A stretch of 53,243 nucleotides of DNA, filler included, from Sluysia triapertura (Eukaryota), in assembly GCA_046118255.1 (NCBI GenBank). It is 4 parts of 4 records of this genome, joined end to end, with 100 filler letters (N's around TTAATTAATTAA, not from the genome) between each part and the next. Parts side by side here need not be neighbours in the genome. Positions count along the whole stretch, not along the records: positions 40,754 to 53,243 come from JBJNIA010104098.1; 3 more parts are not named here. One strand, given 5' to 3'. Made by a program: the position numbers and the translations under genes. Each line of letters starts with the position of its first letter. Position 1 is the first letter of the stretch. The notes under the pieces were generated by a model. That model had not been told where the DNA came from, did no database searches, and saw only the letters and a list, made by a program, of their open reading frames with translations. Below are positions 26,528 to 53,243 of this stretch, piece by piece.

Positions 26528-27650
26528 ATGCCTAAAACAGTATTTTTATTTACATGATTGATGTTTTAACTATTTTATGTAATAGATAAATGTTAGCATA
26601 ACGACAATGGAGTCAGAATTACAGTTTTGTCTTCAGAATAAAACTGTTGCCAGACAATTATTTGAACAGGTTATCAAAACCATTGGTTTACGTGAAAGTT
26701 GGTTTTTTGGTTTATTATATAAAGACAATAATGAAAATTATTGTTGGTTAGATTTAAATAAAAAAGTGAGTAATTTTTTTGGCAATTTTGGAAATGAGGG
26801 ATTTGTAGAACTATAGGTTTATATTCAGTTTATAAATTAAAGTAATAACCATAAATATATGGTGGTTTTTAAATTTAATTGATTATTCATACGTAATTGT
26901 AAAGTTTTCATATTAAATGCATAAAGTTAATGCATGATTATTAAGTGCGTTATTTTTGTGAACACAAAGTTAAAGTTCTTTTATTTGTTACGAGGAAGAA
27001 GAAAATAACTAGAAATTAACTCAAAATCAATTAAAATTACATCTATTAAATTTATACGTTCAGAGTAATGTTAATTATTATTAATTATGCATTATTTAGA
27101 TTGTAAATATAAATGTGGACTTAAAGAAAATAATTCAATTTCAATTTCTGGTGAAATATTATCCAGAAGATGTAACTTCAGAAATAATTCAAGATATTAC
27201 TTTGAAATTTTTTTATTTACAAGTTCGAGAATCGATATTAAGTAGTGAAATATTCTGCCCCGCAGAAACAGCTTTATTACTTGCTTCTTATGCTTGTCAA
27301 GTAAAGTTTGGTGATTATAATCCAGAAATACATAAAGCTGGCTTTCTAAATCAAGAAAGGTTATTACCAACTAGGTTAATTTTGATAATAATTATTCACT
27401 AAACATAAATGATTGATAGAATCAAGAATCAATATAATTGGTCTGCTAATCAGTGGGAAGAAAAAGTCGTAAAGTGGTATTTGGAACACATGGGAATGTT
27501 ACGTGAAGAAGCTATGCTTGAATATTTGAAATTGGCGCAAGACCTAGAAATGTATGGAGTCAGTTATTTTGAAATTTTCAACAAAAAGAAATCAAAGCTT
27601 TTTCTTGGTGTAGATGCATTAGGATTAAGCGTGTATAAATATTCAGATAA
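26528..27650 (+). CDS. Moe: ERM family protein (moesin/ezrin/radixin), exons 1-4 covering FERM N and M lobes (26528-26539, 26586-26765, 27100-27374, 27420-27650); 3' part not found
   Basis: MPKT|[14 protein letters not shown]...[27 protein letters not shown]|..[45 protein letters not shown]..|..[34 protein letters not shown]; GT-AG introns of 46, 334 and 45 nt in frame; MPK start fits ERM rather than merlin. Confidence 0.96.
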
Positions 27651-28779
27651 GTAAGTTATTGATTGTTTTTATTTTTAATCATTTGAATTATCTAAAAATA
27701 TTGAGTTATTTATGTTAATAATAGTAAAGTTGGATCATAACATGCCATTTGTAACTGTATTTGTTGGATTTAATAAATTCTTAAACTTTAATTAATTTTA
27801 GTTTAAAAAAGTAATGAAATTCTAACAAAAGTCTAATCTTTATTTATAATTAACGTTTAAAACTTATTCAAAGATTTAAATTAAACAGTATTTGTCTTTA
27901 TTCACTATGCACGATGCATGATTTTATTAAACATTATTGTCGACTCTGATCGTGAAACTTTGAAATGCTTCACTACATGGTTGATCTTTTGCACTAAAAT
28001 GTTTAGTTATAACTTCTAACGAAATTAGTAAGAAAATCCTTGATTTTAATCTGTAAAATGTCTTTTTGTAATTTTGAAAAACATACTATTCGAAAGAGTT
28101 TATTAATCTGTCAGTGTTTCGGATGATAGAAATAAAGTTGGTTCATGATGAACTAAGTTAACATTAATTTGACCAATGGTTTGAGGCTCATGATATATTC
28201 TTGATGTATTTTCAAAATGATTCAGAGAAATCACGATTTATCAATTATTCGTTAATTTATAATTATAATTATAATTGGGTTATAATTCGTGAAGTTATAG
28301 TTATAATTAAGGTTCATTTTGATAAAGTTTTTGCGTTATTTATATATTTGATATTTTCTTAAAAGTTTTTGAATTTTATAAGTGTCCACTAGAAGTGGTC
28401 TTATATATAATAACGAATCAGATAAAGAAAACAAGGATCCAATGGAAGAAAACACGATAACTCGTAAGCAAACGTCAGAACTCATATCAGAGATGAATCG
28501 TCCAATTCTTAACCAAAACTTAAAAATAGAGAAGTTCGCAGGGGATGGAAAGATACTTTTAGATTTTATAAGTGAATACAACGAAGAAGCAGAGAGAAAA
28601 ATGTATAAAGTTCCCTTCAAACTTAACAGGACATGCGTCCAATGTTAATATTATTATTAATAGACAATACTAATGACACGTTACCATTGGGAAATATTGA
28701 AAATTCAGAAATTCAGAACCCAAATGACAGAGAGGTATTAACTATACCATATGATATTGACGAATTACAAGATGAAGTG

Positions 28780-29095
28780 ATGTTAAGAGAACAGAGAAAT
28801 GATAAAAATATTAAACTCATTATTAACGCTATACAAAGTGCTAACGCGACAGAACGTATTTTCCAAGGCCATGAATTACAAAATAATTTATTAAAATACA
28901 AAGTAAACAATAAGTTGTTAATCGTTACATCCAGCTCGAGGAAAACCGTTATACTAATTCATTACCATCGTGGAGAGTTTGGGGATCATCTTACAGTAGA
29001 TAAAACTTTAAACAGAATTAAGAAAAAATATTATTGTGACAGAATGGATCAAGAAATAAGCAAATGGTACCAAGAATGTAAAATGTGCAATTTTT
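28780..29095 (+). pseudogene. extra integrase-type HHCC zinc-binding domain without catalytic core (element A)
   Basis: EQRNDKNIKLII...LLKYK...ILIHYHRGEFGDHLTVDKTLNRIKKKYY...KWYQECKMC parallels the true IN N-domain at 31910-32215. Confidence 0.8.
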
Positions 29096-29207
29096 GGAAT
29101 ACACCGACAGAATACACAATAGCTAATCAATATAACAACAGTTTTATCAAACAGAATTTCGTCTGGCAGGAAACACATCAATACCCATATGCAGACTGTA
29201 CCAAAAA

Positions 29208-29490
29208 GTAACCATTAACGGAAAAATAATACAAGGATTAATCGATACAGGATCGGATGTAACCATCAGAAGATATAATAGTATACTTGAACATGAAAGA
29301 GTAAATCTAATAGAGGTATTTGACACATTTGAAGGAATAGATAGATCAACTACTATATTTAATCGGTAAGAAATAGAAGTAGATTTACAACAAAAAATAT
29401 TTCGTGTAAAATTAGCAGGAGTACATGACTGCCCCGAAGAATTAATAATAGGTATGGACATTTTAGACAAAATCCCGATGTACTGATAAA
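29208..29490 (+). pseudogene. retropepsin-like aspartic protease 1 (element A)
   Basis: VTINGKIIQGLIDTGSDVT ... VHDCPEELIIGMDILDKI. Confidence 0.88.
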
Positions 29491-30255
29491 TAAAGGTATC
29501 GAGTTAAAAAGCGGATTATACATGCAAAGCGCGAGACTACAAGAAAGTCTATGTATGCTACAACTTAAAGAAAAAAATAGGCACATGTTCCAAGGGAGAG
29601 ATGGATATGTTAAACTAGGAGATCTATCCAAAGAATTGGAGAAAGCCTTAAAAAATCCTAATGATATGGATAAATTAGAAACTATTATAAACACTATTAT
29701 GAATTCTCACGATCCATTACATGAATATCCGCAACTGAAACAAACTAAACAGATCAATGCAAACATGGCCATTAAAACATAAAAAGAAAATTTTTGAACT
29801 ATTTAACAAAATCGGAGATATAGAAAGAGACTACTATCGAGAGAAAACTGAGAGTTAAAATAAGAATAGAAGAAACGAATCAAGTAATAGACAATATACT
29901 AATTTCAAAATTAGTATAACAATATACTCATTACAAAACTATGTGAAATATTATTTAAATACTACTCAACCAGTAGAAATGTATTATAGAGACAGAGTAC
30001 GGATTATATTTAATAGATTATGGATTTCCAATAAATTATTTAAATGAAGAAGATGAAATCTGTGCTGTAATAAGGAAAGATGAAAATAGTAATTCAGATC
30101 CTAACAACACTCAGTGTAATAATGAGATAAACCAAAGATATTTCAACTAGGTGTACAGAGAAATGGAAATAGCGAGTCAAAGACGAGGACTACTATTAAG
30201 GGGAGTAGGAGAATTCTATTACATGATGCAGCAAGAAGATAACTGTACAAATGCA

Positions 30256-30545
30256 TTCCATACAACAGTAGAATTCAATAAGGAAAAATACGAAGCTTTA
30301 TTAGATACTGGTGCAACGCACTCTCTTCAATAGTCGAATCCTGAACAACGATACGATCAATAAAATAGTGCCTCATAATAAAACAGTAACAACTATAGGA
30401 CAAAATCATTTTAGGGAAACTAAAATGTGACATTTCAATCGCAGGTCATATGATACAGTGTACGTCTAGGGTTATAAAACATTGTCCCTACAACATAATA
30501 ATCGGAATGGACATATTGATACAAATTCCAGAAATACTAATAGAA
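30256..30545 (+). pseudogene. retropepsin-like aspartic protease 2 (element A)
   Basis: VEFNKEKYEALLDTGATHS ... VIKHCPYNIIIGMDILIQI. Confidence 0.9.
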
Positions 30546-31199
30546 AAACGAATAGAATTAAGAAATGTGGGAAAAAGAACATTGTTTCATAAAAGAGACA
30601 AATATAGATATTATGAAGCATGTGATCTACGAGAGAGACTAGCAGAAGCTCTCAAAGCTCCAGTGGATGCAAAGGAGTTAGAAACCACAATTAATACCAT
30701 CTTAAACTCAAACGAACCATTGCATGAATATACGCCTCTAAAACACCGACTACTTGATGTAGTTCAATCATGGATGCCTAGTCGAAGAAAAAAGATATAT
30801 CAATTATTACGAGAGATAGGAGACAGAAAGATTTGTATATAAATACAAGCGAATTCGAATAAGAATGAACATAGTGGAAATAGGAATGATATCGAGAATT
30901 TGATATAGGTATGGATATAAGTTTATTGAAAAATGTAGAAGTTAAAGCAAATATACATACAAGTGTAGACGTATTACAGAGATAGATATTTAATAGATCC
31001 TGCATACGTATTAGATTATGGTTACCCAATAGACTACTTAACTGCAGAAGACAAAATAACTGTAGTAATTCCACATGACGAGAATGGAGGACGACATAGA
31101 ACGAATCTATTCGACAATTACATCGAAATATGGAGAGAGGACGAAATACGAAACCAAAGAGGGAATAAATTCCTACAAACAAGAACAAACGGTCATATG

Positions 31200-33110
31200 T
31201 ACCTCTCCAGACCCAAAGAAAATAGAGAAAGTTAAATTATTTCCAACCCCTACTAAACAAGTAGAAGCAAAAGCTTCCCTCGGTTTGGCCAATTACTATA
31301 GAAAATTTATAAAGAACTTCGCAACGATTGCCAGACCATTAACTGAATTAACTATAAAGGACTATAAAGACGTGAGGGAGAAGGGCAAATTAATCAAAAA
31401 TTTTATTTGGAACGATAACCACGAAAAGGCATTTTAATCTCTAAAAACTGCACTTACAACAGCTTCGATTTTACGATTTCCCGATATGGAAAAACCATTC
31501 ATACTCATGACAGATGCGAGTGATTTTGCCATTGGGGAAGTCCTCGGACAAAAAGATAAAAAAGAAAGCGTCATCGCGTACCGAAGTCGTAGATTGAACT
31601 CATGTGAGAATAGAAAAAGAATGTTTGGTAATTATCTACGCACTGAAACAATTTAGGCAATATCTATTGGGTCATAAAATATATTTATACACGGATCATA
31701 AACCCCTAATGTATTTACGGGATATTCGAAACGTAACCGGCAGATTAGCCAGATGGAGTTTAGCATTAGCGGAATATGACATAGAGACAACTTACAGGAA
31801 AGATGCATACAATAAAAATGCTGAATTCATGTCAAGACTCGAAAACGTCAACAAAAAAGGAGATACATGCACAATGGTAGTGAACCTAAGCAATAACGAA
31901 AAATCCATGGCACAAGCGCAAAGAGAGGATCCAGAATTGAAACTTATAATAGATCTTATCATTGATAACGAGATAACCGATGAATTAGCTGCCAAATGGA
32001 ATCTAGAAAATAGTCTACTGAAATACGTAACCAGGGAAGGACTACGAACTGTAGTACCAGAAACACGAAAAGTTGCTTTACTGATTCAATACCACGACGG
32101 TCAATTAAGTGGACATCTATCAGCCGGAAAAACATTAAAAGAGATCGAACAAAAATATTATTGGAAAAGAGAAGACGTTAAAGAATGGTGTAACACTTGT
32201 CATATATGCACATCAAGAAAAAATACAGGGACGAAAACGAAAACACCTTTGCAACCAATGCCAGTACCAACGAGCCCGATGAAGATAACAACAATGGACA
32301 TTCTAGGACCATTACCAACTACATCGAGGGGAAATAAGTATTTTCAGACTATCAAACAAGATGGCCTGAAGCCTTTCCTATGTAGGATCAAAAGGCGGAA
32401 ACAGTAGCACAACTATTTGTTGAAGAAATAGTATATCGTTACGGAGCACCAAAAAAATTACTTACCGATAGAGGAAAGAATTTCGTAAGTGAAACTTTGA
32501 CCGCCGTCACAAAATTCTTTGGAATGATCAGAATATACACTTCGCCGTACCATCCACAAACCGATGGACTAGTAAAACGGTTTAATAAGACATTAGCAAA
32601 CATGTTACAATCTTATGTGAACTCCAAGCAAACAGACTGGGATCTGTGTATAAAACCGTGCTTATTTTCAAACAGAAATGCAGTGTACTCAACCACAAAA
32701 GAAACACACAAACATGCCGATCGATCTGGATTGGTCAGGTTCTCAATCACAATATATGGAAGCCCCAGATTATTTGGCGATACTAAAATCTCGTCTGAAT
32801 GAAGCATGGACAAAAGCTGGTCTAAATATAAAACATAATCAAGAAAAAATGAAAGAATATCACGATAAAAAGGCTAAGCCTCATAATTTCAGAATAGGAG
32901 ACAAGGTCTTAATTTACGATTCTGTAATATCAAAAGGACAGTCACCCAAATTGAATAGACCATTCAAAGGTCCATGCGAGGTCGTAAATACCACTCCTAC
33001 TAACCTAGAAGTAATATCAAATAAAAATTCTAAGAAAACCAAGATTGTACACTCTAAAAGGTGCAAAATATCAGTAAAGGAATCTCTCTATAACCTTCGA
33101 TCTAAAGAAA
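31200..33110 (+). pseudogene. pol: pol remnant: RT thumb/connection, RNase H, integrase with GPF/Y module
   Basis: ORFs 31075-31437, 31604-32407, 32497-32802 and the 5' part of 32678-33733 carry canonical Ty3/gypsy motifs. Confidence 0.95.
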
Positions 33111-34963
33111 AAGGTACAATATGTATGATACAAACTGACAGTGCCAGGCGGAACGCTTATTCTAACAAAAGACAAATCTTCCAAATGTTATTATTACTTC
33201 TCATTCTGAACGCCTTAATTACTGGTACCAATTCATGCAAAACAAGAATAGACGAGAGCCCCGTGAAATTTGAGAGATTCAATAACCAACTTTTAGCTTA
33301 TCTTAAAAATAACGCCTCAAGCGCTTTACTTCACTGTAAACCCTCATGCTATCGTCATTCATGCAAAATTGTTACAACCATAGTATACCTTAACAAGAGG
33401 GACCCATTATTTTCAATTTTATGCGACGGTAAGGACACATGCACATGTTACTGCACAGTAGTAAGGGAATCTTATATATGGATGCTACATTACCCCAACT
33501 ACGAAACAAATACTACTAATAATCTAGCGGTACTAATAATCATTATTCAGTTTAACAATGATAATCCCGCTTCTTTTCCTTTTGTTTCTATTATTAACCC
33601 CTTTTTATTAACACAATTTTTTAAAAAAAACCGACCAAAAAAATCAATTTTTTTATTTAAGAAAATACATATTTTGACCTTAATTTCAATAAATATTAAG
33701 TTATTTTTAATGCCCGGATATATTCGAATCTGAACATTTTAGCGACATAAGTTGCGATGCCGACCGTATATATAAGGGTCTGCATATTTTGTCCGGTTTT
33801 GCATGCCCATGTTAATACGTTAAGGGGTTAATCCTTTTGCTATTCATCCGAAAAGGATGGAAAACCTAGACTTTACAAAAAATCAAAACCCCGTCTTAAA
33901 ATGAAGCAACGACCAATACTTCAATGCCCCCATCATACTCATTTAATCTACCACTTATGAACACCAATTTTATTTTTACTTAGAATCATCGCATGTACTT
34001 ATTCTTAAAATTGGACATCGCATTTAATATATTCCCTTAAATTACACGAAATTTCCATTTATGCCAACCATTATAGTAACCTATCTTTGCGAATCACAAT
34101 TTCCAGAGAGTATTTCAATTTTACGATCGAAAATACACCTAATTCGGAACTGTTAGCCAATTTTAAACAATTACGACCTAATCGGATATATAATGTATCT
34201 ATTACTAACCTTAATCCTGTTTATAGAATGAATCAACCAATAATTCATTACATTAAGTTCTTTCTTAAAACGAACGACTTTCCGCAGGCAGACGAAACGA
34301 TTAAGAGAGTAACCAACTATCTATAGATCAAAACTACATCGGACTCCATAAAGTCATCTTTGTTTATTATACCATTCATTGTCCTCATTAAGTGCCCTAA
34401 TTTGAAGATAAAAGTCGTAGGCGAAAATCATCCTGCCGTATGTAAACAGTTACTGCCCGAAACATACCACAAAATACCTATTTGGATACCAATTTTCATG
34501 GAACAACGATCTAGAAAATTCGAAAATTTTAATCTCCCTACGAAACAGGAGATTATGACATACTGTACTATATGATAACGGACCCCGATGATAATTATCT
34601 ATATTTTGACGGTGCCAAAAATAATTCCGAAACTATAAAACTTTTCACTTACAACTCCTCTCTTAACAATTAACGAATCACAAAATTTAACTAGCTTCCA
34701 AAGCCCGTCAATGAATCTTACAGCAAAGGTAGCCTATCTAAAAGAGGACAATGCATGCACCTATCCGACTAATTTAATGAAGATATTACTGATAGCCGTA
34801 GGCGTGCAACTTTTATGAATTACGATTTCTATGATATTATCTATTTGGCAATGGTCAAAACCTATGACAACTCATAAAAAGCACAATGACAACCCGGCTA
34901 TTAGCAGTCCAATACGCTTAATGACATTAGGAAATCCTAATCTTGATAAATTCTATGTTTATC

Positions 34964-36273: not shown

Positions 36274-36449
36274 GTTTTGCTAATATTATCATTTAAAATG
36301 TTCTCGTTTGTGTTTAATTTTTATTATAAATATCTTTAAATATTTTTGGTAACACTTAATTACATTTTAATATGAATACTAGTTTGTTTGAATATTGACA
36401 CACAAAAATTATTAATCCTGTTTCTTTTTATTTTAAATATTTTAAAGAC

Positions 36450-37235
36450 ATGATTGAGCAAAAATTTGAAATTAACATAATCGGTGAGTTTGTGAAATCA
36501 ATGGAATATCAAGTCGAAAATGAAATTAACGATTTTAAAGTACCTGAACATTATAAATTTGGTATCTATTACGGCGAAGGATACGATTACGTGCAACAAT
36601 TAGTCAGTATGAAAGATTTCAAAAATCTAAACCTTGAGTTACCACAACAAATGAACAGTGCCAGTTTTGAAGAATTATGTTGCAATTCGACTCGTTCATT
36701 TCAAATAGAATCATATGTGAGTCAATCTTCACTAGTTTCTGAGAAATCGGTTATTAAAAGTTGTAGATCGAAACAAGATTTGAAGTATCAGCATTGTTGT
36801 TCAAGTTGCGTATGGAGTTTGTGCTTAGTTGGGTACTTGACCGAATATTTAAATTTAAATTTACAGGCGAGGAATCGTAATGACGAATGTCCTGTTAGAC
36901 AGAGACAGGGTTTTAGAAACCAACAAAGTTTAAAAATGGATGATAGAAGTAATTACTGCTCGTTCACTAGTGGACAACAGCTAGAAATTATAAGAGATTC
37001 TAAAATTTCGATTGATGAACTCCCAGTAGAAGTTTACTTACATTTGTTAGACTTATCTACAATTTTATTTAGTGTATTAGTTAGTTATTGTGTATCATCA
37101 ATAACCATGGTTTGTAATAATATAATCAATTCATGTTACTTTTATTATGTTCGCCCACTAAGACAAATATTATGTACCTTTATGTGCCTTAAGCACAAAA
37201 TTATTGATAAAGATTGTACACAACCAAAATTTTAA
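36450..37235 (+). CDS. hypothetical intronless protein (261 aa) with Cys-rich patches and a C-terminal hydrophobic segment
   Basis: ATG-initiated 786-bp ORF flanked by AT-rich DNA, AATAAA downstream near 37273. Confidence 0.55.
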   Translation: MIEQKFEINIIGEFVKSMEYQVENEINDFKVPEHYKFGIYYGEGYDYVQQLVSMKDFKNLNLELPQQMNSASFEELCCNSTRSFQIESYVSQSSLVSEKSVIKSCRSKQDLKYQHCCSSCVWSLCLVGYLTEYLNLNLQARNRNDECPVRQRQGFRNQQSLKMDDRSNYCSFTSGQQLEIIRDSKISIDELPVEVYLHLLDLSTILFSVLVSYCVSSITMVCNNIINSCYFYYVRPLRQILCTFMCLKHKIIDKDCTQPKF

Positions 37236-38830: not shown

Positions 38831-40376
38831 TGTCAACCCTATCTCAATTAAGAACACTAGCGTACAAATTTTTTCAAATGTTCATGTTAAAAAATAATAT
38901 GAACATCCATTAAGGTAACATTAATAAAGATTTCCAGAAAAATTGTATTTATTACAATTTTTATTTCTTTGACACCTAATAAAGTCTTAATTTAAATTAC
39001 CTAGATGCTTTTTCTCCTTGTATTTCATCAATAAGATCCCATATTTTGTTCATCTTATCAGGAATATTAGCTTGAAAATATTTTTCAAGTTTCTTTGCAT
39101 ACTCATAGGCACCGTATCCTGTCATTACCGCACATTCTACCTCTTCAACAGAATTATCATTTGTTTCTCCTACTAGATCAAATAAGAGATGTTCAAACTC
39201 AAAACATAGAAAATCATCCCATTTAGCATTCACCTCTTTAACATACGCATTTTTCAAAGATTTGGTAAAACAATTAGAGATAGTCGCTTTCGAAATCCAA
39301 ACGAACCTTTTAGCACCATATCTCTTATGTAACATTATTATCTAAATTAAAATTCATTAAAACTTTTTATAATACCTTAGTCAAGAAGTTGAATAAGAGA
39401 TAACGTGTTTCGTAGGAAAAAGAATAATTCGATAATAATAAAATTTTCCGCTCCTCTGCTTTCATTTCGAATCTTTTAACCAATCTTGAAAATTCCAAGA
39501 CTTTGTATTCCAATGGTAATAAACTGGTAGTTTTTCTATATAGAAATCTTTAAAACAACGATGTTTCTCCGATCGACCTGTCACTAAAGGCTTTAACTTT
39601 TCTCCTAACATATTTACTCCCAAGAGTATAGTAAATCGATACTATAGTAAATAGTATAATTTGCCTTATCCTCTTTAGAAATTGCATATGTTCTGTTTAA
39701 TGAACATTTCCAGAATGGTCCGGTTTCGTCACAATTATAAACATTTTTATTTTCATATTCTTTTAACTTTTACATATACAATTCCTTAAAATTAAGAATA
39801 AACCTTTCATCCAGGGTTTTGATTCACCAATAATATCATACGCCTGGAACGAAAATGATTAAACCAACCGTTTGACGCTTTAAAATCATGATTTCATAAG
39901 TGCTGTGCTAATTCTAATGCCTTCTCTTGCAATATATCACTACTGATACTGATATTTTTTGTTCTCTGAATCTGGAACCATTCATACAGGATGGCATCAA
40001 TTTGTGTTTTTCTTTACTGTTTGGTATTCAAGTTTGACTTCAAAATGGAGTTTCTAGATTTCATAAGATTATTTATATTGTATTTTGATGAAAGGAAGCA
40101 TTGAGAACAACCTTTATCTTCAGAAAATAATTTTAACAATTCTGCTTCTCTTCGATGCTTAAATCCTTTCTCTTTCGTTTTGGATTTGTATTTTTCATGT
40201 TCATAAAAGGCAGTTAAAATGAATATTTAAACAAAAAATTGGAGAAATTATTAATTTATTTTGCACTAATTATTATTCATTGTTCAAAATAAACAGTGTT
40301 TACATTATTAAACTCAATTTTCCATGAAAACCAAATGTTCATATTAAACTTTGTTCATATTGAAAAGGGTTGACTG
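38831..40376 (-). mobile_element. decayed pogo/Tigger DNA transposon with both terminal inverted repeats
   Basis: TA-CAGTCAACCCTTTTCAATATGAACA at the 40376 end and degenerate GTCAACCCTATCTCAATTAAGAACA at 38832; minus strand encodes CENP-B HTH (LYEWFQIQR..ILQEKALELA..FKASNGWF) and DDE_1 motifs (RFTILLGVNMLGEKLKPLVTGRS..RCFK..LPVYY; NTLSLIQLLD*GIIK; WISKATISNCF). Confidence 0.9.
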
Positions 40377-40753: not shown

Positions 40754-41204
40754 TAGGATCATTATAAATGTTTTCTTTATCATGATTCTTATTTCAACAA
40801 TGTTTATAATGTTTAATCCATCACTTGTACTAGTTTTTCCCTCATTTTATGATTTTACATATGTTCATTCATCTCCAGATCCTCAGTTGGGCAATCCCAA
40901 CACTATCAATTTTCTATGGCACTTTAGGTCTGTACCCCAACATATGTCACCAAATTCAATTATGTTTGACCTCAAACATCTTATATCATTTACTTCAACA
41001 TCAGAAGGGTATTCGATATGTGGGCTCACCCGGAACCTCTAGCTACCAGCAGGTAATGAATGAATAATTTGGCATAAATTATGAAATGAAAGTATAAAAC
41101 TTGAAGACAGAAGAATTTTTTAAGCGAGATTTAGTATTTAGAAGAATAAAAAGAAGATTTTATTTAAAAAAGAATTCCCGACAAAAATTTGAATTTAAAT
41201 TCCA

Positions 41205-41772
41205 TGTCAAAGTAATTAATTTTTTGATAAGTTTTAATCGTTTAACTCTATAAGGAAACGTAAAATCGACTCCAAATCATTTTTATTTTTATGCAACACC
41301 TTAATATGGGTTGTGAAACATATTCCTATAATCTTGTGAAACGGCCAACGGAGGTTGAGGTCGTTGCTTAAATTATTATTCATATTATAACTTTCTTTTT
41401 AATAATTTTTGTAAGAATTAATTTTTGTCGTTAATATACTTTAGGAATATTAGAGTCTTTTAATTTAATAAACTTATAAAATTCGTTTTGTTAATCAACA
41501 CCTTAATACGGATTGTGTAATTATAAAATCTGTAATTTTAATTAAACAACACCTCGTAAAGGGTTGTATTATAAATTAATTAAAAAAGAGTCACAAGAGA
41601 TTAATCATTTTTATATAAGTCATAAGTAAAGAAGTTTTTCTAAAGTTAATTAAGTTAAGTTATAAAAAATCCTAATAGTACGTCTAATAGAGTTATAAAT
41701 CGTATATATTAGGCGAACCGACTCTTTAGATATTTTGTAAGTAAGATTAAGTTTTTAATGGAAACACTTTCA
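41205..41772 (+). repeat. putative 5' LTR of element B (5' boundary uncertain)
   Basis: Ends in CA at 41771-41772, five bases before the PBS; shares sequence blocks with 25250-25300 and the reverse complement of ~11375-11425; TG at 41205 is only a candidate start. Confidence 0.5.
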
Positions 41773-41777
41773 AAATT

Positions 41778-41795
41778 TGGCACCCGAATTGGAAC
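41778..41795 (+). promoter_or_regulatory. primer-binding site, tRNA-Lys-like
   Basis: TGGCACCCGAATTGGAAC matches the tRNA-Lys(UUU) PBS TGGCGCCCGAACAGGGAC at 14/18 positions and precedes a T-rich leader and gag. Confidence 0.75.
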
Positions 41796-42104
41796 CACTT
41801 GAAGTATATTAAAGTTTATATATTAAGTTTTGATTTCATATTGAAGTTAAGTTATTGATTAAAGTTAAATTTAAGCTTTTGATTTAAGTTACTGTTGAAT
41901 TTAATTAAAGTTTAAAGTTTATTGATTTTGTTTTCGATAAGTTATATTTGTTTAATTGATTAAGTTTTTACGTTTATTGATATTGTTAAGTTGTTGATAA
42001 TTTGAACACATTAAGTTTATTAAGCATTAAGTTTTTGATAAATTACGATTAAGTTAAATAAGTTTCGATTATCTGATTTGATTTTTTACGTTTACATTTG
42101 ATTT

Positions 42105-43510
42105 TTGAATCTTACGTTAAGAATAGATAAAAATAATAACCCTATGAAGAAATATAAGAGAACTTTAAGAAGCAACTCACTTGAGAGATTTACAATGACA
42201 GTACCATTTGAAGAATTTAAAGATTGTATGACTCAACTGACCCAGAATGTTAAGCCAATAGTAATACTTCCAGAAATGCGCGAGTTTAGTGGCGCCGAGG
42301 AAGATCTTTGTGATTTTTTATTTGAATTCGATAGCCTAGCTGAAGCTAATGGCTGGTCACCGATAGATAAGGTTAAGAGAATACAACATTATTTAACTGG
42401 TGTTCGATACAAACATATAAGGAGATAAAAGATGAACATAAGGAAGATTGGAATACAATAGAAGACCTAAGAAAATACTACGCGAGAATGCTTAATATAA
42501 GGGTACCGAAACCGCACGAAACAGTTTGTGAATTTGCCTACGCTTTTAGAAGTTTAGCATCCAGAGCCAGGATTGCAGATAACCGAAAAGAAATAGTATT
42601 AATAGATAAGTTTATATAGATTTAATTGAGGAAATCCCATTCAAAGACACAGCTAAGAAATGAAGAAGTATTGAACGTACTAAAAATGAAACCAGAAAAA
42701 AATATAAGTTACACAGATGATAGCAAGAATACAAGAAATAATTATAAACATAAATATGAGAATTCCTTTGACGATAATAATTATAATGAACCCCCTAAGT
42801 ATGAGAATTCCTTTGAAGACAGTAACTTTAATAGTAATAACAGTAGTGTTAATGGGAATAGAGATAACAGTATCAATAACTTTCGAGGTAACAAAAGAAG
42901 AAATTCAAATAATTTTAGAAATAATCCGGTAACAAATTACACTAATGTTGGTAGAAGTAATAGAGGATTTGAGAAGAGACAAATAAATGATATGGGTTCA
43001 AGAGAGTATGAACAACGTCCACTGCCAAGATGGCCCAGTAAACAAGCGAATAATACTAATAATAATTCAGTAAGAGACAAAAGTCCTGCACAATCAAACT
43101 ATAATAACAATTATGAAACTAGAACAAATATAGAAGGTGATATAGTATGTCACAGTTGTGGTAGACATGGGCACTATGCTCGAAATTGTAATAAGTTAAG
43201 GTCAAATACTTTTAAGCAATTTTTAAATAAAATGTCGAACTCTAGACAGGCCTCACCAAGGAGAGTAAAATTCGACATGAGTAGGAATGACGGACAAATA
43301 AATTGCAATTATAATGAGGAGTATGAAGATTACAGATATGAAAGACATCCAAGAACACTGACAAATGAAGAGGAAGAGATGTTAAGAGAATTTTGTATAG
43401 AAAAAATGGACAATAATGAAATTGAGGAAGAAAAGAACAACCCAGGAGTAGGCATGATGAAGAAGAGGATATGTTTATTAATTATTTACATAATTACTTT
43501 ATGGAGTTAG
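42105..43510 (+). pseudogene. gag: gag of element B
   Basis: Capsid-like REFSGAEEDLCDFLFEFDSLAEANGWS..YLTG; KPHETVCEFAYAFRSLA; Asn-rich linker; zinc knuckle CHSCGRHGHYARNC. Confidence 0.92.
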
Positions 43511-45036
43511 TAAAAGAAAAGAAAAAGGAATATAAGAAGAGTAAAGAGATGGAAGAGCAGCAAAAATCAAAAATAATTAAAAGTGCTCAGCAAATTGAAG
43601 AAGAAAAAAAATATGCCGAAGTAATTTTAAGTAGATGGATGAAGCATAGCGGTATAACAGAAGAGGACGAAGACAGATATCGATAGTGTATTAAACATAG
43701 AAGAAGAAATAATTAGCTTATACGATCAAGAAGAAGAACTGGATGACATACTCTCAGATACTGAGCCAATGATTATTTTAGGTAATGAAGAAGATATACC
43801 AACCGAGGAAAATAGCACACAGAAAACAACATTTAGTGGTTTATCTAAAGAGGTAGAAATATTTCTTTCAGATTTATCAGAAGCTAAAAATATGGATACA
43901 AATTTAAATATACTTTTAAAAATAAATTTAGATATGTTTAATAGACAAAATATTAGGTCATGTTTACTTTACTTAAGTCAGGCAGATAGCACACATAGCT
44001 TTAAGGCAAGGATTGGTATGTTTATTTATGGAATTACCTGTTACTATAGTAGTAAAAGATGCATTTGACATGCTTAAACTATTTCTTTAAATTATATTTC
44101 TTTAATAGATATTTAGAACCCAGAGAATATTTAATAAATTACGGTTACCCGTTGGGTGATCATGACGAAATGATAAAGGCAGAAATAGTACAAGAAAATT
44201 CAAATAATGTTGAAAACGAAACAAATAAAAATGATAATGAATCCCCACATACGTTACCAAGACAATTAATGGAGGATGATGATAAACATGTAGTTGACAT
44301 TGATGCTGAAGCAGAAAATAATGAGTTAGTTGATATCGATGCCGAAGAAGGAAAAGATGAGCCCCCCGATTATATAGTAAACCTTAATAAAAACACATAT
44401 ATAAACCGTCGACAAGGAAACAAATACAATAAAAAGAAGACCTGGGCGTCCACGAAGAGACGAAAATGATATAATAACTGCACCTGTTGTTAAGAATACT
44501 ATTAATTTATCAAAAATAAACTGTGAAAATGATGATGAAATTGAATTAGATAGTAAAGGAATAATTTTTGCATTTTTGTCCGAAAAGTTTACTAATTTTA
44601 CTAAATATAAGAAGTTATTGGCGGAAATCAACAAAGAGTATAAAGTTTCTATAAATAAATTAATAAGAAAGTTTGAAGAAAGATATAAGGATAAAGACAT
44701 TAGTGATTTTATAGAAAACGAGCAATAAAAGGTGGCAATAATTAAGTTAATTAATAAAGGATTGGATGAGGAAAAGTTGAAAATAATCTTAACGTACGTT
44801 AGATACCAATGCAACCAAGAAAGAATGGTTACAAAAATAAAATAGATAAGGTTATAGATTTTGTAATTAAGAAAACTAAATTATGGATTGAAAATCAAGT
44901 AGGTTGGCGCAATATAATAAAAGGGAAAAAGAATCAAAAAACGGAAGAGCCGACAAATATAATGGCACAATTATTCGACAATAACGGTAACATATTAAAT
45001 AGGACAATACCAAGGATAGGTAATTTGACAAATAAT

Positions 45037-46851
45037 ATGCTGTTTATCGTAATACCATTAACAATGTTCGGCATAAATAGAACTAATGCAATAAAGACAT
45101 TTGACTGTAGCCGGATACAAATGGGCAGAAAATTTTCATTATTCGACACAGAAGATTGTCCTGAATCAAGGCCAAATAGAATACGGTAAAAGATATTAAA
45201 ATAATGAGTGTTTACTAAGAAGGTAATCTAATAACGACTCTAATATGTAAAACGATCAGTGGCAGTCTGGTATTGCGGTCACCATATCCATTCATTAATA
45301 ATAGAATTATCTAATGTACTTAAACATAAACAATGTAGAGATGCATTTGAGACCGGCTATATAAGTCTAACAAAGGGAGACACATTGAAAATGGGAAATA
45401 ATGAAAAGATAATTTATAATATAAGAACTGCCGGAAATGTACTAATAGATGTGACATGTGAACAAGGAACAATATAATATGAAGGAAAAAAGAAACATAC
45501 GTAGTTAGTTTGAAATCTTTTAACGAGAGTTTTGATATGGAAAAAGGTACAGTGATCAAACCAGTTGCGACACTGGAGAATCAATACTAATTTAAGAATT
45601 GGACAAAATTCAATGTCCACTAATATTCCTTAAACAAATAAAATTTAATGTAATATCAGGATTCATGTATCAAGATAAAGACAAATACCCATTAGAAGAA
45701 ATAAATAAAAATACGGACCACATACAAAGAAAAAGACTAGATGAGGTCGAAACACCGACAATACTAATGACCAGTAGAGAAGAAGATGGTTTAATTTTTA
45801 TTTCAAAAAGGAACAATAATCTGCTGTGGAAAAGAAATAACAGAAACTAACTACTAAGGAATTTATCTCTCAGAGAAAATAATTCAAATAGCTAAGAAAG
45901 GCGTTGATACAAAAAAAACATAAAAGTAAATGCCTATATTAACAATAAAATCGATTTCTATTGCCATTTAGGATTGATTTCAAATTATGGTTATTCGGGA
46001 GTGTCAATTAAACAAAGAAATTTTGCACACAAAATTGTCACTAGCTATTACAAATACAGATTTTAGTCGCACTATTACTTCCATTAAAAGAAGGAATTTT
46101 CGGTCGACTAATGGGAAAGGTATTGTACACGTACAAATGTAAAAAGGTAGAAGTGCAATTAAAGTCAACTACCGAATGCACAATTGAATTACCTATATTA
46201 TACGGTAAAACAGAAGCATACCTTGACCAGTAACCAGAGTAATATTTCCAAATAATAAAGTCAAACCAAAATCAAATGTCATGGCACTGGAATATAGAAT
46301 TGATGATAATTTATGGATATCCTTACCACATAGAAGCCAGGTAAAAACTCCAGAAATAATAAGACTAACCGAATTAAAAGAAAAACTGAAATTTTTGGCT
46401 AGAAAAAATATACAAAATTCTGGCATTTATACGAATGACGATATTCAAGCAGCCTGGCGGGTGATACTATTCCCAATAAAGAGGTCAAAAGTTTTTGTAG
46501 ATAAAGCAACAATTAAAAAGAATGAACAAATAAATTTCGAATTACTATTGGAACCCGATCACTTTAAAAGAGCTGCACAAGATACACTGAAACAGATCTG
46601 TGGAATTAATATTAGGACAAGCATTTTCTGGATTAATAGGAATATATATATATATGTATATGATTAAGGTAATAGCGTTGATAATTTCTCAAGCCTTTTC
46701 AGTAGTCGGAATTTATAAAATCTCAGGATTTTTGTGGAAATTGATAATTGGATGTTTTCCATTCCTGGCAAAATACCTCTTGCACCACCATGCAAATGCT
46801 CAAATAAATGGATTAAGAAAAGAAAGACAATACACAGAAGATAACAATTAA
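45037..46851 (+). pseudogene. env: chuvirus/Jingchuvirales-like (class III-type) envelope glycoprotein of element B
   Basis: Signal peptide MLFIVIPLTMFGINRTNA then IKTFDCS..FSLFDTEDCP, WYCGHH, CRDAFETG, TCEQG, GIFGRLMGKVLYTYKCKKVEVQL...ECTIELPILYG, PVTRVI, SGIYT..D..VILFP and a C-terminal TM region; this motif order is what I recognise from chuvirus-type G proteins. Confidence 0.85.
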
Positions 46852-46994
46852 AAATATTACAATAGAGTAAAAATGAAGAAATAATAGAAAATCAAAAATG
46901 CATTGAAATTCAGAAAAACATAGAAACAACTAACGAAAATAAGAAAAGAGGACTATATCCTATTACTCCAACATCACCACCCCACGTAATCTAT

Positions 46995-47310
46995 ATGATA
47001 TGCGCTAATAACAATTATAATGGTTCAAAGAGACCAATAGTAAATGCTAGAATAGTAAACGGTAGAGTAGTAACAGCACTAATTGATATAGGAGCACTAG
47101 CCTCCTTAATCAACGAAAATTTCTTACATAAAGATGAATTAAAAAATTTAGCTAATCATACCTCTCATCTATCAGGGGTTACAGGCGATGCAATTAATAT
47201 AACTGGAGTAATGAAAGCTATATGCGAATTAGGACAAAATAGATTAGAAATTAAATTAAGAGTTATGAAAAATGTCCAGAAGAAATGATAATGGGAATGG
47301 CATATTGTCT
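46995..47310 (+). pseudogene. aspartic protease of element B
   Basis: RPIVNARIVNGRVVTALIDIGALASLINE...LSGVTGDAINITG...(frameshift) MIMGM. Confidence 0.88.
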
Positions 47311-47729
47311 CAATTAAAAGGAGTAAAATTAATGGATAGTCAATCAAAAAGAACTATTGATGATGATGACGTATAGGTATATGAACAAATCTGGTTAGTA
47401 AAAAGAAGTGAATATATAATGCCGGTCAAGACAAACAGTTTATTAACCGGAAATATCATGTTTATTGCACCAGATGTTAGATATAGGAATAGCTAGTGTA
47501 GTGTGGGAAAATACGTTAGGATTATAAACTACAGAGACAAAATTAGAAAAAAAGTTAAATATACAATACCATTTCGGAAAATAAAAGTAAAAATAAGATA
47601 AAAAGTAACATGAAATTACAACATGAGATACAAGACGAAAATTACGGTGAAATAGAAATTAATAATAACAGATATATTAATTATAAAGTGTCATTTACCG
47701 ATATCCAGGAGCAATAGCGAGAAATTGTA

Positions 47730-48260
47730 ATAATAAAACACGAGATACCGCTAATATTAGATAAAGTAATCCGAAAAAAGCCATACAGAATACCAATACG
47801 TATTCAAGAGCAAATAGATACCATGAAAAAAGCCGGAGTGATAAGACCAAGCTTCTCACCTTTCATCTTCAGTTTTATTAGTTAAGAAAAAAGATGGTAC
47901 AATGAGATTTTGTATAGATTTTAGAGAATTAAACAAGATAAGAAAAGACGTATTTCCTTTACCACGAATAGATGAAATGTTGGACAAATTAGGAAACGCC
48001 ACATATTTTACAACCATTGATCTACAAAGCGGTTATTGGCAAATCGAAATCGCTGAGAAAAATAAACATAAAACCGCATTCACTTGTGGCGATGAACTAT
48101 ATGAATGTGAAAAAATGCCATTCGGATTAACCTGCAACTTTCCAAAGGTGCATGAATTTCGTATACATAATAATATTTTCTAAAGATTTCGAATCACATT
48201 TAAAAGAATTAATTACAATATCTTGATATAATCATTTAAAGTTTAAACCAGAAAATTGGT
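47730..48260 (+). pseudogene. pol: reverse transcriptase (N-terminal half) of element B
   Basis: [76 protein letters not shown]; YxDD region damaged. Confidence 0.95.
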
Positions 48261-50304
48261 CCATTCTTATCACTTGCTGCATTGAGAAGTCTTTGAAAAT
48301 CCTATAGGTACATCTTTCTTCGGATTATAAAATGTATACTACAGGCGAACCCAGAGTTGCTAAAAACTAATTTTGCAAAAAAGAGATTTAGTAATCGAGC
48401 ATCATGATGTAATATCAGGAGAAAATACAAATATTAACAAAAGTATACAAATATTTTAGGTAATTAATGAAATTACGGAGGACTGTTGGTTAAATTTCAC
48501 CAAATCAGAAATGTAATTATAAGATATGAAACTAAAAGCATGAGAAAGTGTCAAGTTAGCACATAGATAAAAGTAGCTTAGAAGAGTGGAAATATGCTCC
48601 TAACACGATTCGCGTAAAGTTTATATTAGGCTGATAATTATTCAAGCCTTAAACCAACTAACCAACAATCAATTATCAATAAAAATACCATACAATAAAT
48701 ATCAATTTTTGAAATAGTCTGAAAATTTTTAAAAACTAATTATCTTAAAAATATTTCTTATAGAACAATAAAACACTAAGAATTCGCTAAACCTCTTAAA
48801 AGAATATTAATAAATACTTGCTAATATTAAATTTCAGTCCAATAATTATAATATATGTCGCTAAAATCTAGTATCGGACAACTGGATTTTTTGTAATTTG
48901 AATATTCATAAATGTGATGCGTTATTAATATATTACAATAAGTTTTTTTAGTAAAGTGTTAAATATTAAAAAATTATATTTCAAAGATCTGTTGAATTGT
49001 GTTTTCTATACAATTGTTAGTAATTATATTTATTATTTGTGTGTGTATACTATTCTTGATTAATTTATGATTTTAAATTTAGTATTATTTATTAATGTAT
49101 TAGAAATACTTTGAAATTTGATATGATTGTTTTATTTAAGTTTTTACTGAAATTGTTAATAGCTTTAGAGTTAAAATTTAAAACGGTATCAAAAATAATA
49201 GTATTATTTTCAATAGCGCTTTTCACGATTTTTATATGAAGAGGTGCTATTAAAAATGTTATCACTCAGTAAAGATTCCATTTTTCAAAGCTTATGTCAT
49301 GGAATTTAGTCACTGAAAAAATGTAGTTTATTTCTGATGAATATTTTATACATAAAACTTATTGTTTCTATTAAGAGACCATATAAAAATAAATTTAAAA
49401 AGTATACTATAAAAACAAATGCTTAGTTATAGTTTTCAGTAATGGTAGAAAAAAATTAGAAATTTGTCCTCATAGAGTAAATTCGATTGAATGTCAGACT
49501 TTTAAATTATAATTTTATTAATGAAACTGGATATAATAAAATTATGCAACATAGATAGATAACAAGTTACACAACGTACCTTATATAGATAATTCTACAA
49601 CACATGTGACCTTTGATCAATTGAAATCTGAACTATATTAATATTAAAGATGGTTTATTTAACAAATTTAAAATTTAGTGGCTAAACATTTTCAATACTA
49701 CAACTTTAAATCTATTCCATCTCAATTACAAGCTATCTATAAATGTGCTGTGGTTTTCTTAACTACGGCAAATAAAACTGAACAGGGCCCAGTTACAGTA
49801 AACGACTTATGACAAATCTTAACGAAGTGAGAATATGTAAAGATTGCTTTAATAATTGTACTTATAGTTTTTCTTTAGAGGGTCTTATAATTAATGATAT
49901 TAATCAAAGTTTCTTTTTATTTTTAAATTTCCAAAAAATACTTCCAAATTATATCAAAAAAACAGTTTTCTATTATCACAATCGATTAATTAATTTCTTG
50001 TATAATTTAACTTCGATTAAACTGAAAATTAAAAACAAAGAAAGAACTGAAAATTTTATTAACAACTACAATACAAAGAAAAAATGTAGTCAAATAGAAA
50101 TAATAAAAATTGATATTTTAAAATTAAAATCCCAAACGATCTTTAATTTATACTTTTTAATAATATAATTTGAATATAAAAATTTCACCTTAGTAGATCG
50201 GGATAAACAAATTTAAATAAATGATTTTCGTAAGATTTATAGAAACAGAACTTACAGAAATATAACTTACTGAATGTTTGCTAGAATGATAAATCTGCGC
50301 TTAA

Positions 50305-51165
50305 TTATCTGAGATAGCCGATTAAAATTGATTGCGCAGTTGCTCCAAGCGATATAAAATTTTTGATTCTATCTTCTAAATAGTTTTCTCTCCCATTAAA
50401 CGAAAATTTATTAACAAAATGGTGGTTAAATCCAAAATGACGATTATCACTAAACTGATGCAAATTTATATATTCTTCACCAGCCAATAAGAATCGATGA
50501 AATATTCTAGAATGTTCTGGAAACTTTTTTTCTAATTTTAGTATTAAGTTTTCTTTTTTAGAAAATAAGTTTCTTTCTTGGAAATTGACGATTTAAAAAG
50601 GTTTATTTTAATAGATTTAATAATTTGAAAGGGTTGTGATAATAAATGAAATGTGGAGAACAAAAAATTAACGACAATTATATTATTTATTATACTTACG
50701 TTTGTTTTTGTTAAATTGTGCAATTTTTTCTGTTACGTTAAATACTTTTGAAATCTGATTATTTAATATTAAACATAAATTTTAATAATTATATATTATA
50801 AGAATGATTGTTTTTTCACTAAGAATTCAAAAATTGATTTTATTTTTAAAATTTATGTAGTTGTTTGGTATAAGTGTATTGAAATGACATTTAATGTAAA
50901 GATATCGAAATTTAATATGAAACTTTTTGATATGTTTGTTAAATTCAAGTTTTAATTTATTTAACGAAAAAATATACAAATTAAATTTATTGAGTATCCT
51001 GATTTATTCTCCATATGTTGATTCCGCAAAAGTAAATGTCTCTGTTTATTAAATTTATTAATCTCTATTAATTGCATTTGCAAAATCCGCAAATCTTCAA
51101 ATATTGCTTCTAGAAAACTTTCATTTTTGCGAAAAGAATTTTTGGTGAAGTTTTTCAACTGAACC
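50305..51165 (-). CDS. possible exons or remnants of an unidentified gene
   Basis: Two minus-strand ORFs (50305-50487, 50961-51158), the latter preceded by a tttag acceptor-like site; no family recognised. Confidence 0.25.
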
Positions 51166-51593
51166 TAAATTTAAAAGGTAGTCAATTTTATTTTTTGATA
51201 AAAACGGAGTGCTACCGTTATTGCAAACAAAACATTTTAATTTATATCTTTTGCTTCCTGATTCCACATTCTTCTTCAATAAATTGTTTTAATTGGTCCG
51301 CATTCTAATTTTTCCTTATATAGATCTCATCTTTGGTATTGTTCGCGAACTTATGCAAGTTTCTCTTCGAAAAATTTCTTATTTCTTCAACCTTGTCTTA
51401 AAAGGCGCCTAAACGTTTTTTTTGCCGAATAAAATCAATATTTAAATTTAAATTGGTTTTTGTAATAGTGTGTTTTAATGAAAATTATTTAATTTTTGAT
51501 TTTTGGTTTATAAAAAACTTTATAACAAACTTGTTATCCACACGGTTCATTATTTAATATTGAATATTTAATTTGAATATACTTATTCTTTTA

Positions 51594-52094
51594 TTAATTT
51601 ATTACACATATACTCGACATGTAATTATTTTTATAATTATAAACTAACTCCATGTGTTTATTTTGCGAAAAAGAAATAAAATACATTTCTGGGTTTTTCA
51701 TTTGTTTTTGTAAAATCCATCGAACAACTTTATACAGTATGTACAAAAAAATAAGACATGATACCCAAATAAATCGAATATTTTTTTCATCTTCTAACAT
51801 GATTCCATGTTTGGTTTTACAAATTATAAAATATATAAACAATGCTAAATAACCTAATGCTAGTATAACGTATAATCCAAGTTTTATTAGAAAGGCATTA
51901 TTATTATGAATATCATTAATTGTTTTAACAGCATTATAAATATGCTTTGAAAAATTGCCTTTTTGTTCTGGCAATGGTTCAAAATCTTCTTCTAGATATA
52001 TTCTCAAAACTTCTTCTTCTGGATAACTAGTATATTTAATTAAATTATCTAATGCTCTTGGAGATGGACTTTTTCTGGTGGGGAGTTTCGGCGC
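51594..52094 (-). CDS. exon resembling the N-terminal TM region of a concentrative nucleoside transporter (SLC28 family)
   Basis: tttag acceptor at 52095-52096, open frame APKLPTRK...FLIKLGLYVILALGYLALFIYF...DEKNIRFIWVSCLIFLYILY, resembling CNT TM1-TM2; further SLC28 exons not found. Confidence 0.55.
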   Translation of the reverse strand, partial: APKLPTRKSPSPRALDNLIKYTSYPEEEVLRIYLEEDFEPLPEQKGNFSKHIYNAVKTINDIHNNNAFLIKLGLYVILALGYLALFIYFIICKTKHGIMLEDEKNIRFIWVSCLIFLYILYKVVRWILQKQMKNPEMYFISFSQNKHMELVYNYKNNYMSSICVIN

Positions 52095-52479
52095 CTAAAT
52101 TTAATATTTAAAATAAATCAGCATTATTTTCCAGTTAATTTGGTTGTAGATATTATACGAAGAGAATTTTATATGCATCCTTCAATTTAACATTTTAATA
52201 AAATGCAAATTTATTTTGCTATCAATTTGAAAATAGAAAATAAATTAAAAGTATTTATGATTTAAAATGCATTTCTATTCTGCAGATAAACGATAAATAA
52301 GATTTTTCACAATGAATAATCCAGATTTCCAATGTCATTTTTGAAATATCTATGTATCACTCTATGTTTATTGGCCTATCGAAGTTGAGTCCATCAGGTT
52401 ACGATGTACGGAAGATACTCAAACATGCAATATTTAGAAACTCCAGAATATGTAACGATAATGAGGGAAAATTTACAGG

Positions 52480-52740
52480 ATGCACGGATTGCAGGCTTAA
52501 AAATGAAATATTCTCAAAAGATGCTCATGATAAAAAGACGAAAGAACACAAATTTCAAGTTGACGATAACGTATTGGTAGATTATCCACTATCAAAACCA
52601 GGTCCATGAGAAGTCAAAATCCTACCAATCTATTTATAATGGATCCTAACAAAATCGATGCTGAAACATTTGTGGTACATGTTAATAAATATAAAACGGC
52701 ACCTAAATAGGAATATAACTTATGAAATATAAAAGTTGAG
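52480..52740 (+). mobile_element. isolated Ty3/gypsy integrase C-terminal fragment
   Basis: KDAHDKKTKEHKFQVDDNVLV..PGP*EV...TFVVHVNKYK...EYNL parallels KEYHDKKAKPHNFRIGDKVLI..GPCEV..IVHSKRCK..YNLR in element A. Confidence 0.7.
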
Positions 52741-53243
52741 AGAACAGTCTTAAAAGTTAAACCCAAAACTAAGGGCCGTAATAAACCTCCTTTCGTTCAT
52801 TCGTTAGTTAATAAACAAGTAGTAATAATAATAAATACATCACTGGCTATACAGAATAATGTATTTCAAAATGGCAGATGTAAAGAGCCGTATCAACCGT
52901 AGTTGCTCAATTTGTAACATTTACAACAATTACTCAAAAATTACATAAACATCGCAGAATTCACAAAGTACATATCAAATCTTAACAATTGTAAATCACG
53001 TTACAATTCACAAAACACTTAATTTTAATCACATAATCTAATTGATAAATTCATTTCATATTGTTAGGTTGTCATCACAACCCTCTAAAATAATTTTAAA
53101 ATGATAAAATGAATTAAAATTAATTAATTTAAAATATTTAAAACTATCAAAAATTAATTAAAAACATAAAATATCTTAAAATCAATTATTAATTTGTAAA
53201 ATTACTTAAAAACAATTATTTTCCAAAAAAGAAAATAAAATTT

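Follow-up and report, generated by a model that had tools for sequence, protein, structure and literature searches.

How does a retroelement bring its reverse transcriptase into a particle when a membrane-spanning envelope protein is encoded between Gag and Pol? This question is raised by a locus in a 53,243-nucleotide stretch of the genome of Sluysia triapertura (GenBank assembly GCA_046118255.1), called the window here, which is made of four pieces joined by N spacers and carries a gag-env-pol element in the last of them (positions 40,754 to 53,243, from JBJNIA010104098.1). With a probability of roughly 0.85, this element is one copy, decayed and truncated at its 3' end, of an abundant Ty3/gypsy long terminal repeat (LTR) retroelement with env between gag and the protease and reverse transcriptase (PR and RT), likely once expressed as one Gag-X-Env-PR-RT-RH-IN polyprotein like that of its intact relatives (X, accessory region; RH, RNase H; IN, integrase). 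An earlier reading made from the sequence alone (the sequence-only reading) had proposed the order primer-binding site (PBS), gag, accessory region, glycoprotein, protease and RT on one strand, and both order and coordinates hold when examined by Pfam, tblastn and structure matching. The parts, all on the plus strand, run from the PBS through a gag with a CCHC knuckle, accessory region X and a PF24664 glycoprotein to the protease and a Ty3-like RT, gag and RT starting about 5.5 kb apart, and no Pfam match was found on the minus strand of the element-bearing piece:

41410..41772 (+): probable 5' LTR, 3' part (left end not fixed), upstream of the PBS and ending in CA ahead of it; high summed contig depth in bin 41410-41734
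41778..41795 (+): PBS, probably of tRNA-Lys(UUU) type, from its likeness to a Lys_UUU 12-mer
42144..43400 (+): gag, with capsid-like region, Asn-rich linker and one CCHC knuckle; broken
43400..45036 (+): accessory region X, acidic in places; it has a motif resembling an AT-hook, and a helical domain weakly like Bcl-2; broken
45037..45090 (+): internal Env signal peptide that continues the frame of X before it and has a predicted cleavage site for signal peptidase
45091..46605 (+): Env ectodomain, Monjiviricetes/chuvirus-like, predicted herpes-gB-type class III fusogen (PF24664, tblastn, fold of a relative); with frame switches and stops
46606..46851 (+): Env membrane anchor, second amphipathic segment and cytosolic tail (topology predicted from an alignment of 19 rows and a crude insertion-energy scan)
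46866..47290 (+): linker and retropepsin-type protease with a non-canonical catalytic motif
47293..47484 (+): conserved protease-RT linker domain (tblastn to residues 1170-1237 of relative P0001 and 1506-1574 of relative P0062)
47676..48230 (+): RT, N-terminal two thirds, broken; the copy ends there

Relatives were collected by a protein search with an X-read-through of one env frame, which gave 58 matches among 1.84 billion representatives (P-numbered here), of which 19 were scanned for domains. PF24664 is present in all 19, and the window glycoprotein at 45037-46851 matches this family in two frames (E 7.8e-20 and 2.7e-12). Collinear tblastn pieces of the window Env were obtained against 14 of the 16 relatives queried, and the other two match in part. 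The Env signal peptide falls within an open reading frame (ORF) at 44803-45189, as the sequence-only reading had said of a longer ORF, and in 13 of 16 polyprotein-type relatives the same hydrophobic stretch stands ahead of the first motif of Env; the remaining three begin inside Env. In all 19 rows, two of which are stand-alone viral-type G proteins, the ectodomain is followed by a hydrophobic segment whose insertion energy is clearly favourable and by a marginal one bearing Lys/Arg and Cys; the insertion energies come from a crude scale. An AlphaFold model of the Env of relative P0007 (mean pLDDT 77.5), which is 38-57% identical to several aligned polyproteins, was searched with Foldseek, and every top match listed is a herpesvirus gB (best E 5.6e-14, TM-score about 0.3). 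By this modelled fold and PF24664, the Env of the window lineage is a chuvirus-like, class III (gB-type) fusogen, in agreement with the class first assigned to it. A search of viral contigs with an Env piece gave 30 pattern matches and none that was confirmed.

The Pol portion places the element in a superfamily. The RT is matched by RVT_1 (E 1.1e-11), and its best solved structure is the Ty3 RT (E 4.4e-27), followed by two weaker PDB matches (1.4e-11 and 6.5e-6), while no BEL/Pao-specific Pfam family was found in any frame of the element-bearing piece. Judged by these matches, the RT is of Ty3/gypsy type, and the proposal of an enveloped Ty3/gypsy lineage with gag-env-pol order is borne out by this RT together with the relatives that share the order. 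The protease frame opens at 46866, 15 nt past the env stop, exactly where it had been placed, and is matched by RVP (E 0.0067) and by tblastn to P0062 (E 2e-6). In the window copy about 158 codons separate the membrane anchor from the protease; of 14 relatives whose motif could be detected, 11 have a spacing of 124-222. The window copy has a single protease, before the RT. Two to six aspartic-protease domains per polyprotein, some after the integrase, occur in several of P0002, P0003, P0004, P0005, P0014, P0059 and L001, a locus introduced below.

What the sequence-only reading left out is the state of the copy: its heavy decay, the non-canonical protease motif, an RT active-site motif that is absent from the window copy in a three-frame reading, and the end of homology near 48,230. 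Compared with P0062, there are 7 frame switches in the 1.8 kb of env and 2 in the RT, with stops besides. Homology to the relatives ends at about 48,220-48,230, inside the RT, and neither RNase H nor an integrase core was found in the window copy. Summed contig depth, which is not a copy number and comes from one public sequencing run that is perhaps the window's own source, lies at 25,904-210,779 in each of the 19 bins between gag and RT; after 48234 it falls, and the four bins that follow have 38-80. All of gag, X, env and pol are therefore repeated DNA, and the copy is cut off inside the RT. No RNA run stood among the listed holders of the stretch, which has no bearing on expression. A fragment resembling an integrase C-terminus lies at 52356-52704 (+; E about 3e-6), 4 kb past the RT break, and may be a remnant of the same or another copy.

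Whether the element was once a single polyprotein cannot be shown from this copy, because a stop at 46849-46851 closes the frame of the env tail, and the protease lies in another register, with more stops between. The relatives must be considered instead. Twelve of the 19 scanned proteins run from Env into an aspartic protease; five extend to RT and RNase H, and four of these five to integrase. A Pfam Gag mark precedes Env in three of the 19, and a CCHC pattern adds Gag evidence for P0001 and P0006. From the CCHC pattern and the domain scan together it follows that in P0001 and P0018 a single frame spans everything from the Gag knuckle to integrase; two further members of the cluster have the layout Env-PR-RT-RH-IN. 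Residues 375-1522 of P0001 are collinear with the window from signal peptide to RT, with an env-protease gap of 79 residues against 63 codons. The source label of P0001 is a hypothetical protein of a Flavobacteriaceae metagenome-assembled genome; it is clearly an animal-type retroelement polyprotein, and the label is probably due to contamination.

Env precedes RT in all seven proteins that have both, yet these proteins had been selected by Env, and a search with the RT only was therefore made. It gave 80 loci (L-numbered), with at least 3.5 kb upstream in 28 of them, and Env was seen in one. This one, L001, is the best RT match (67% identity), and its frame of 3,426 codons holds Env at 470-1109, followed by PR-RT-RH-IN. 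The other close match, L002, begins inside the protease, and the remaining 78 loci are at most 57% identical. In an RT tree of 80 rows and 81 columns, from which 9 of 80 loci were left out for having fewer than 80 aligned columns and in which the bootstrap is unsettled, the window falls within a set of 13 rows (98/88) that contains all nine G-labelled rows, one of which (P0060) has pol only and belongs to a cluster that bears G; in three rows of the set no G was seen. The tree lends weak support to a grouping of the window with Env-bearing relatives. The sequence-only reading had named beforehand an env elsewhere in relatives as the observation that would speak against it, and the relatives keep env between gag and pol. 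The other observation it had named, a protein with no likeness to class III fusogens, was not made either, the modelled Env of P0007 having a gB-like fold. Its single polyprotein, in which Pol comes after a membrane-spanning Env, stands for the relatives, in the 12 of 19 and in L001. It is not confirmed in the window copy, which is out of frame and interrupted; by extension from the relatives, such a polyprotein likely preceded the broken copy.

Several observations weigh against this account. Env and protease are out of frame in the window copy with stops between them, and the env-protease junction is bridged by none of the eight contig pieces among the matches listed; continuity from env to protease is therefore not demonstrated within the window family. 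In seven of the 19 scanned proteins Env is not followed by a protease; these break off early, are fragmentary or are stand-alone viral-type proteins. The second segment after the anchor is marginal on the same crude scale (+0.9 in the window, +0.7 to +7.1 overall), which makes a two-pass topology possible. The gB fold match comes from P0007 and not from the broken Env of the window, its TM-scores are low, and an Env sequence profile reaches gB at a mere E of 0.11.

The rival explanation that survives best, though it is improbable, keeps the gene order and separates the frames: Gag-X-Env would end at the env stop, and Pol would arise by frameshift or read-through, or from a message that is spliced or internal. 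It draws on the stop at 46849-46851 and the differing protease frame, which together imply that more than one lesion separates env and protease, and on the fact that the published catalogue of such elements (PMC13524379), where it describes them, writes of GAG, ENV and POL ORFs and tolerated ENV-POL gaps of up to 2 kb in its search. Breaks are, however, just as much a feature of the rest of the copy, as the seven frame switches in env alone make plain, the env-protease spacing agrees with that of relatives, and Env continues into protease without a stop in the 12 scanned relatives as well as in L001, the closest by RT. The weakest rival, that an endogenised chuvirus gene or a BEL/Pao piece was inserted as the glycoprotein into an ordinary gypsy copy, or that the order is a misassembly, could appeal to the joined pieces of the window and to the stand-alone viral-type G proteins among the env-search matches (P0011, P0022), but it is largely refuted, since Env lies before Pol in relatives including the best RT-only match and the parts share a strand-biased composition (AT skew 0.22 in env, 0.25-0.26 in gag, X and pol, -0.02 in the 3' flank). 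The closest env-search matches are, moreover, retroelement polyproteins of identical order, depth as well as composition is even from gag to RT, and env is skipped whole in none of 15 joints among the matches listed (15 of 288). Nor was an internal LTR found: as had been claimed, there is no second LTR copy between env and protease. Three A-rich purine runs of 13-15 nt occur within 44.7-47.1 kb, all of them in coding sequence.

The 5' end and gag of the element, here read as a truncated single-polyprotein copy, are recognised by more modest matches. The PBS-like 18-mer starts at 41778, 5 nt beyond the CA end of the probable LTR, and its first 12 nt are identical in 9 of 12 positions to the Lys_UUU 12-mer of supplement 1 of PMC13524379, a comparison set not taken from the host. 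A 51-nt look-alike of the probable LTR lies at 25251-25301 (E 2e-7); no 3' partner LTR was found within the window, and ARAGORN found no tRNA gene. In gag, zf-CCHC at 43145-43192 (E 0.0027) is under the Pfam cut-off, Retrotrans_gag reaches E 0.11, and 42285-42616 aligns by tblastn with the Gag of P0006, with P0005 matched as well.

Region X spans about 1.6 kb between gag and env and holds no confident Pfam domain. Matches to PSP1, TSNAXIP1_N and BEN lay below the Pfam cut-off and were dismissed as helical noise. At 44435-44458 there is a motif that we take to be AT-hook-like, and a BH2-like motif at 44884-44907 closes the weak Bcl-2-like helical domain. A Bcl-2-like domain stands ahead of the Env signal in three relatives, P0007 (Pfam E 0.00096), P0003 (E 0.2) and P0015 (by similarity). 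Pfam gave no direct Bcl-2 match in the window X; a profile of these three scored 11.8 bits against the X-read-through of the window, a value reached by none of 500 shuffles, with 8.7 for an unrelated window stretch. L001 aligns as one high-scoring segment pair, 44809-45459, from the Bcl-2-like domain of X into Env and thus across the signal-peptide junction, and a GRP motif like that of X stands before env in P0002, P0004, P0005 and P0059.

At the other end, all seven long relatives examined (P0001, P0004, P0012, P0059, P0062, L001 and L002) continue past integrase with more hydrophobic segments. In P0001, P0004, P0062, L001 and L002 this extension has the predicted layout of signal peptide, ectodomain, membrane helix and tail, possibly a second surface protein; leave-one-out tests supported the post-integrase repeat weakly, recovering the expected unit in two of four cases. 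Behind the polyprotein of L001 lies a separate ORF (L001:10617-12104, +) with a match to the RNase_T (DEDD) exonuclease family (E 1.4e-5).

The architecture itself is not new, contrary to what the sequence-only reading implied. An in-frame env between gag and pol was published in 2019 for Burro/GYPSM1, gypsy-like elements of planarians (Arkhipova and Yushenova 2019, PMC6431247), and GAG-ENV-POL elements with an HSV/gB-type Env have been catalogued in Nematoda, Bryozoa and Platyhelminthes, where they are not monophyletic (Chary and Hayashi, eLife 2026, PMC13524379); the gag-env-pol architecture is thus already in print for flatworm and roundworm elements. As described (PMC6431247), Burro has env in frame between gag and protease within one polyprotein, an arrangement that is broken in the window and present in the relatives; its env resembles mononegavirus fusion glycoproteins, as does the window env; a BCL2-like domain directly precedes env, where the window has a weak one at the same place; and a dUTPase-like domain lies between PR and RT, where the window has a conserved extra domain, compared by position. 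The BCL2-env junction of the window copy is positionally consistent with Burro and lends weak support to the likeness. By contrast, Burro is giant and carries MATH, BIR, ankyrin and ubiquitin-like cargo, whereas the window element measures about 5.5 kb from gag to RT and none of these domains was detected in it by Pfam; Burro has two to three CCHC knuckles, compared by description only, and the window one (PMC6431247). The window element is therefore Burro-like, yet too compact to be filed as Burro.

A second counterpart is the group of errantiviruses described in PMC13524379, which share with the window a Ty3/gypsy Pol, a gB-type Env, gag-env-pol on one strand and presence in many copies; the supplement lists nine flatworm families, one with 215 intact copies. 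The window element works like these GAG-ENV-POL gB-type Ty3/gypsy elements and most likely belongs among them, although this copy, compared by description only, would fail their intact-ORF filter as it is decayed and truncated. The searched passages of that paper do not discuss polyprotein processing (no match for "polyprotein"). Mosquito BEL/Pao elements with a chuvirus glycoprotein (Dezordi et al. 2020, as cited in PMC13524379) carry the same glycoprotein class and belong to another superfamily, whereas the window RT is closest to Ty3 and env stands before pol. For nematodes, the flipped order of env and pol is credited to work on NERV elements (Sacco et al. 2022, as cited in PMC13524379). 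NERV hosts are nematodes. These elements are also said to have a continuous gag-env-pro-pol ORF.

A route by which such a polyprotein could be made may be proposed for the intact lineage; the window copy itself is capable of none of its steps. Gag and X would be made in the cytosol until the internal signal peptide enters the membrane of the endoplasmic reticulum (ER), where signal peptidase would cut on the luminal side to give a free Env N-terminus and leave Gag-X tethered to the membrane via the signal peptide. The Env ectodomain would pass into the lumen and one anchor helix would bring the chain back to the cytosol, so that protease, RT, RNase H and integrase would be suspended from the Env tail on the cytosolic side until the element's own protease frees them. 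Gag and Pol would then meet on the membrane and would not be fused to each other. All of this, from cleavage and topology to the formation of particles, is putative for this lineage; the processing is modelled on that of flavivirus and alphavirus polyproteins. The Env leader peptide of foamy viruses offers a functional analogy only: it is long, N-terminal and membrane-anchored, stays in the membrane and couples the capsid to budding (PMC7828637). In those viruses Gag and Env are two proteins, and furin cuts the leader (PMC7828637); in the window lineage Gag would be joined covalently to the signal peptide.

Elsewhere in the window, a second decayed element lies at 28400-34500 (+). Its Pol is near that of L001, at 48% in RNase H and 67% in the integrase core, and it has more than one stretch resembling a protease. 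Its integrase is followed by a stretch like a signal peptide (about 33190-33245) and, near 34410-34480, by a weak FN3-like repeat (E 0.009, four-sequence profile). A host FERM exon of the ERM family is found at 27100-27402 (+; PF00373, E 3.9e-14); its matches fell in generic FERM clusters that pointed to no one phylum. There is also a decayed Tc5/pogo-type transposase at about 39400-40000 (-; HTH_Tnp_Tc5 E 1.6e-15, DDE_1 E 1.2e-5). Three ORFs, 23891-25045 (-), 36399-37235 (+) and 51594-52094 (-), have hydrophobic stretches and no Pfam match.

As a discovery this locus carries little weight, the architecture being in print and the copy dead, and what it contributes is a further family, abundant and compact, that has one protease ahead of the RT. 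It touches the question of how a retroelement packages Pol with a luminal Env between Gag and Pol. Tentatively, and with the odds slightly against it, the compact family may represent a flatworm lineage of enveloped retroelements in which Gag and Pol are never fused, each being held at the ER by Env, through signal peptide and tail respectively, at a fixed 1:1:1 ratio, and relatives would add, downstream of integrase, a second surface protein of type I that might serve the gB-type fusogen in attachment. Such an assembly route is not known to have been worked out for any LTR element, and a literature search found no account of the processing route or of a post-integrase FN3 or second surface protein. 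Young intact copies in other genomes would be the better material for the question of how Pol is packaged.

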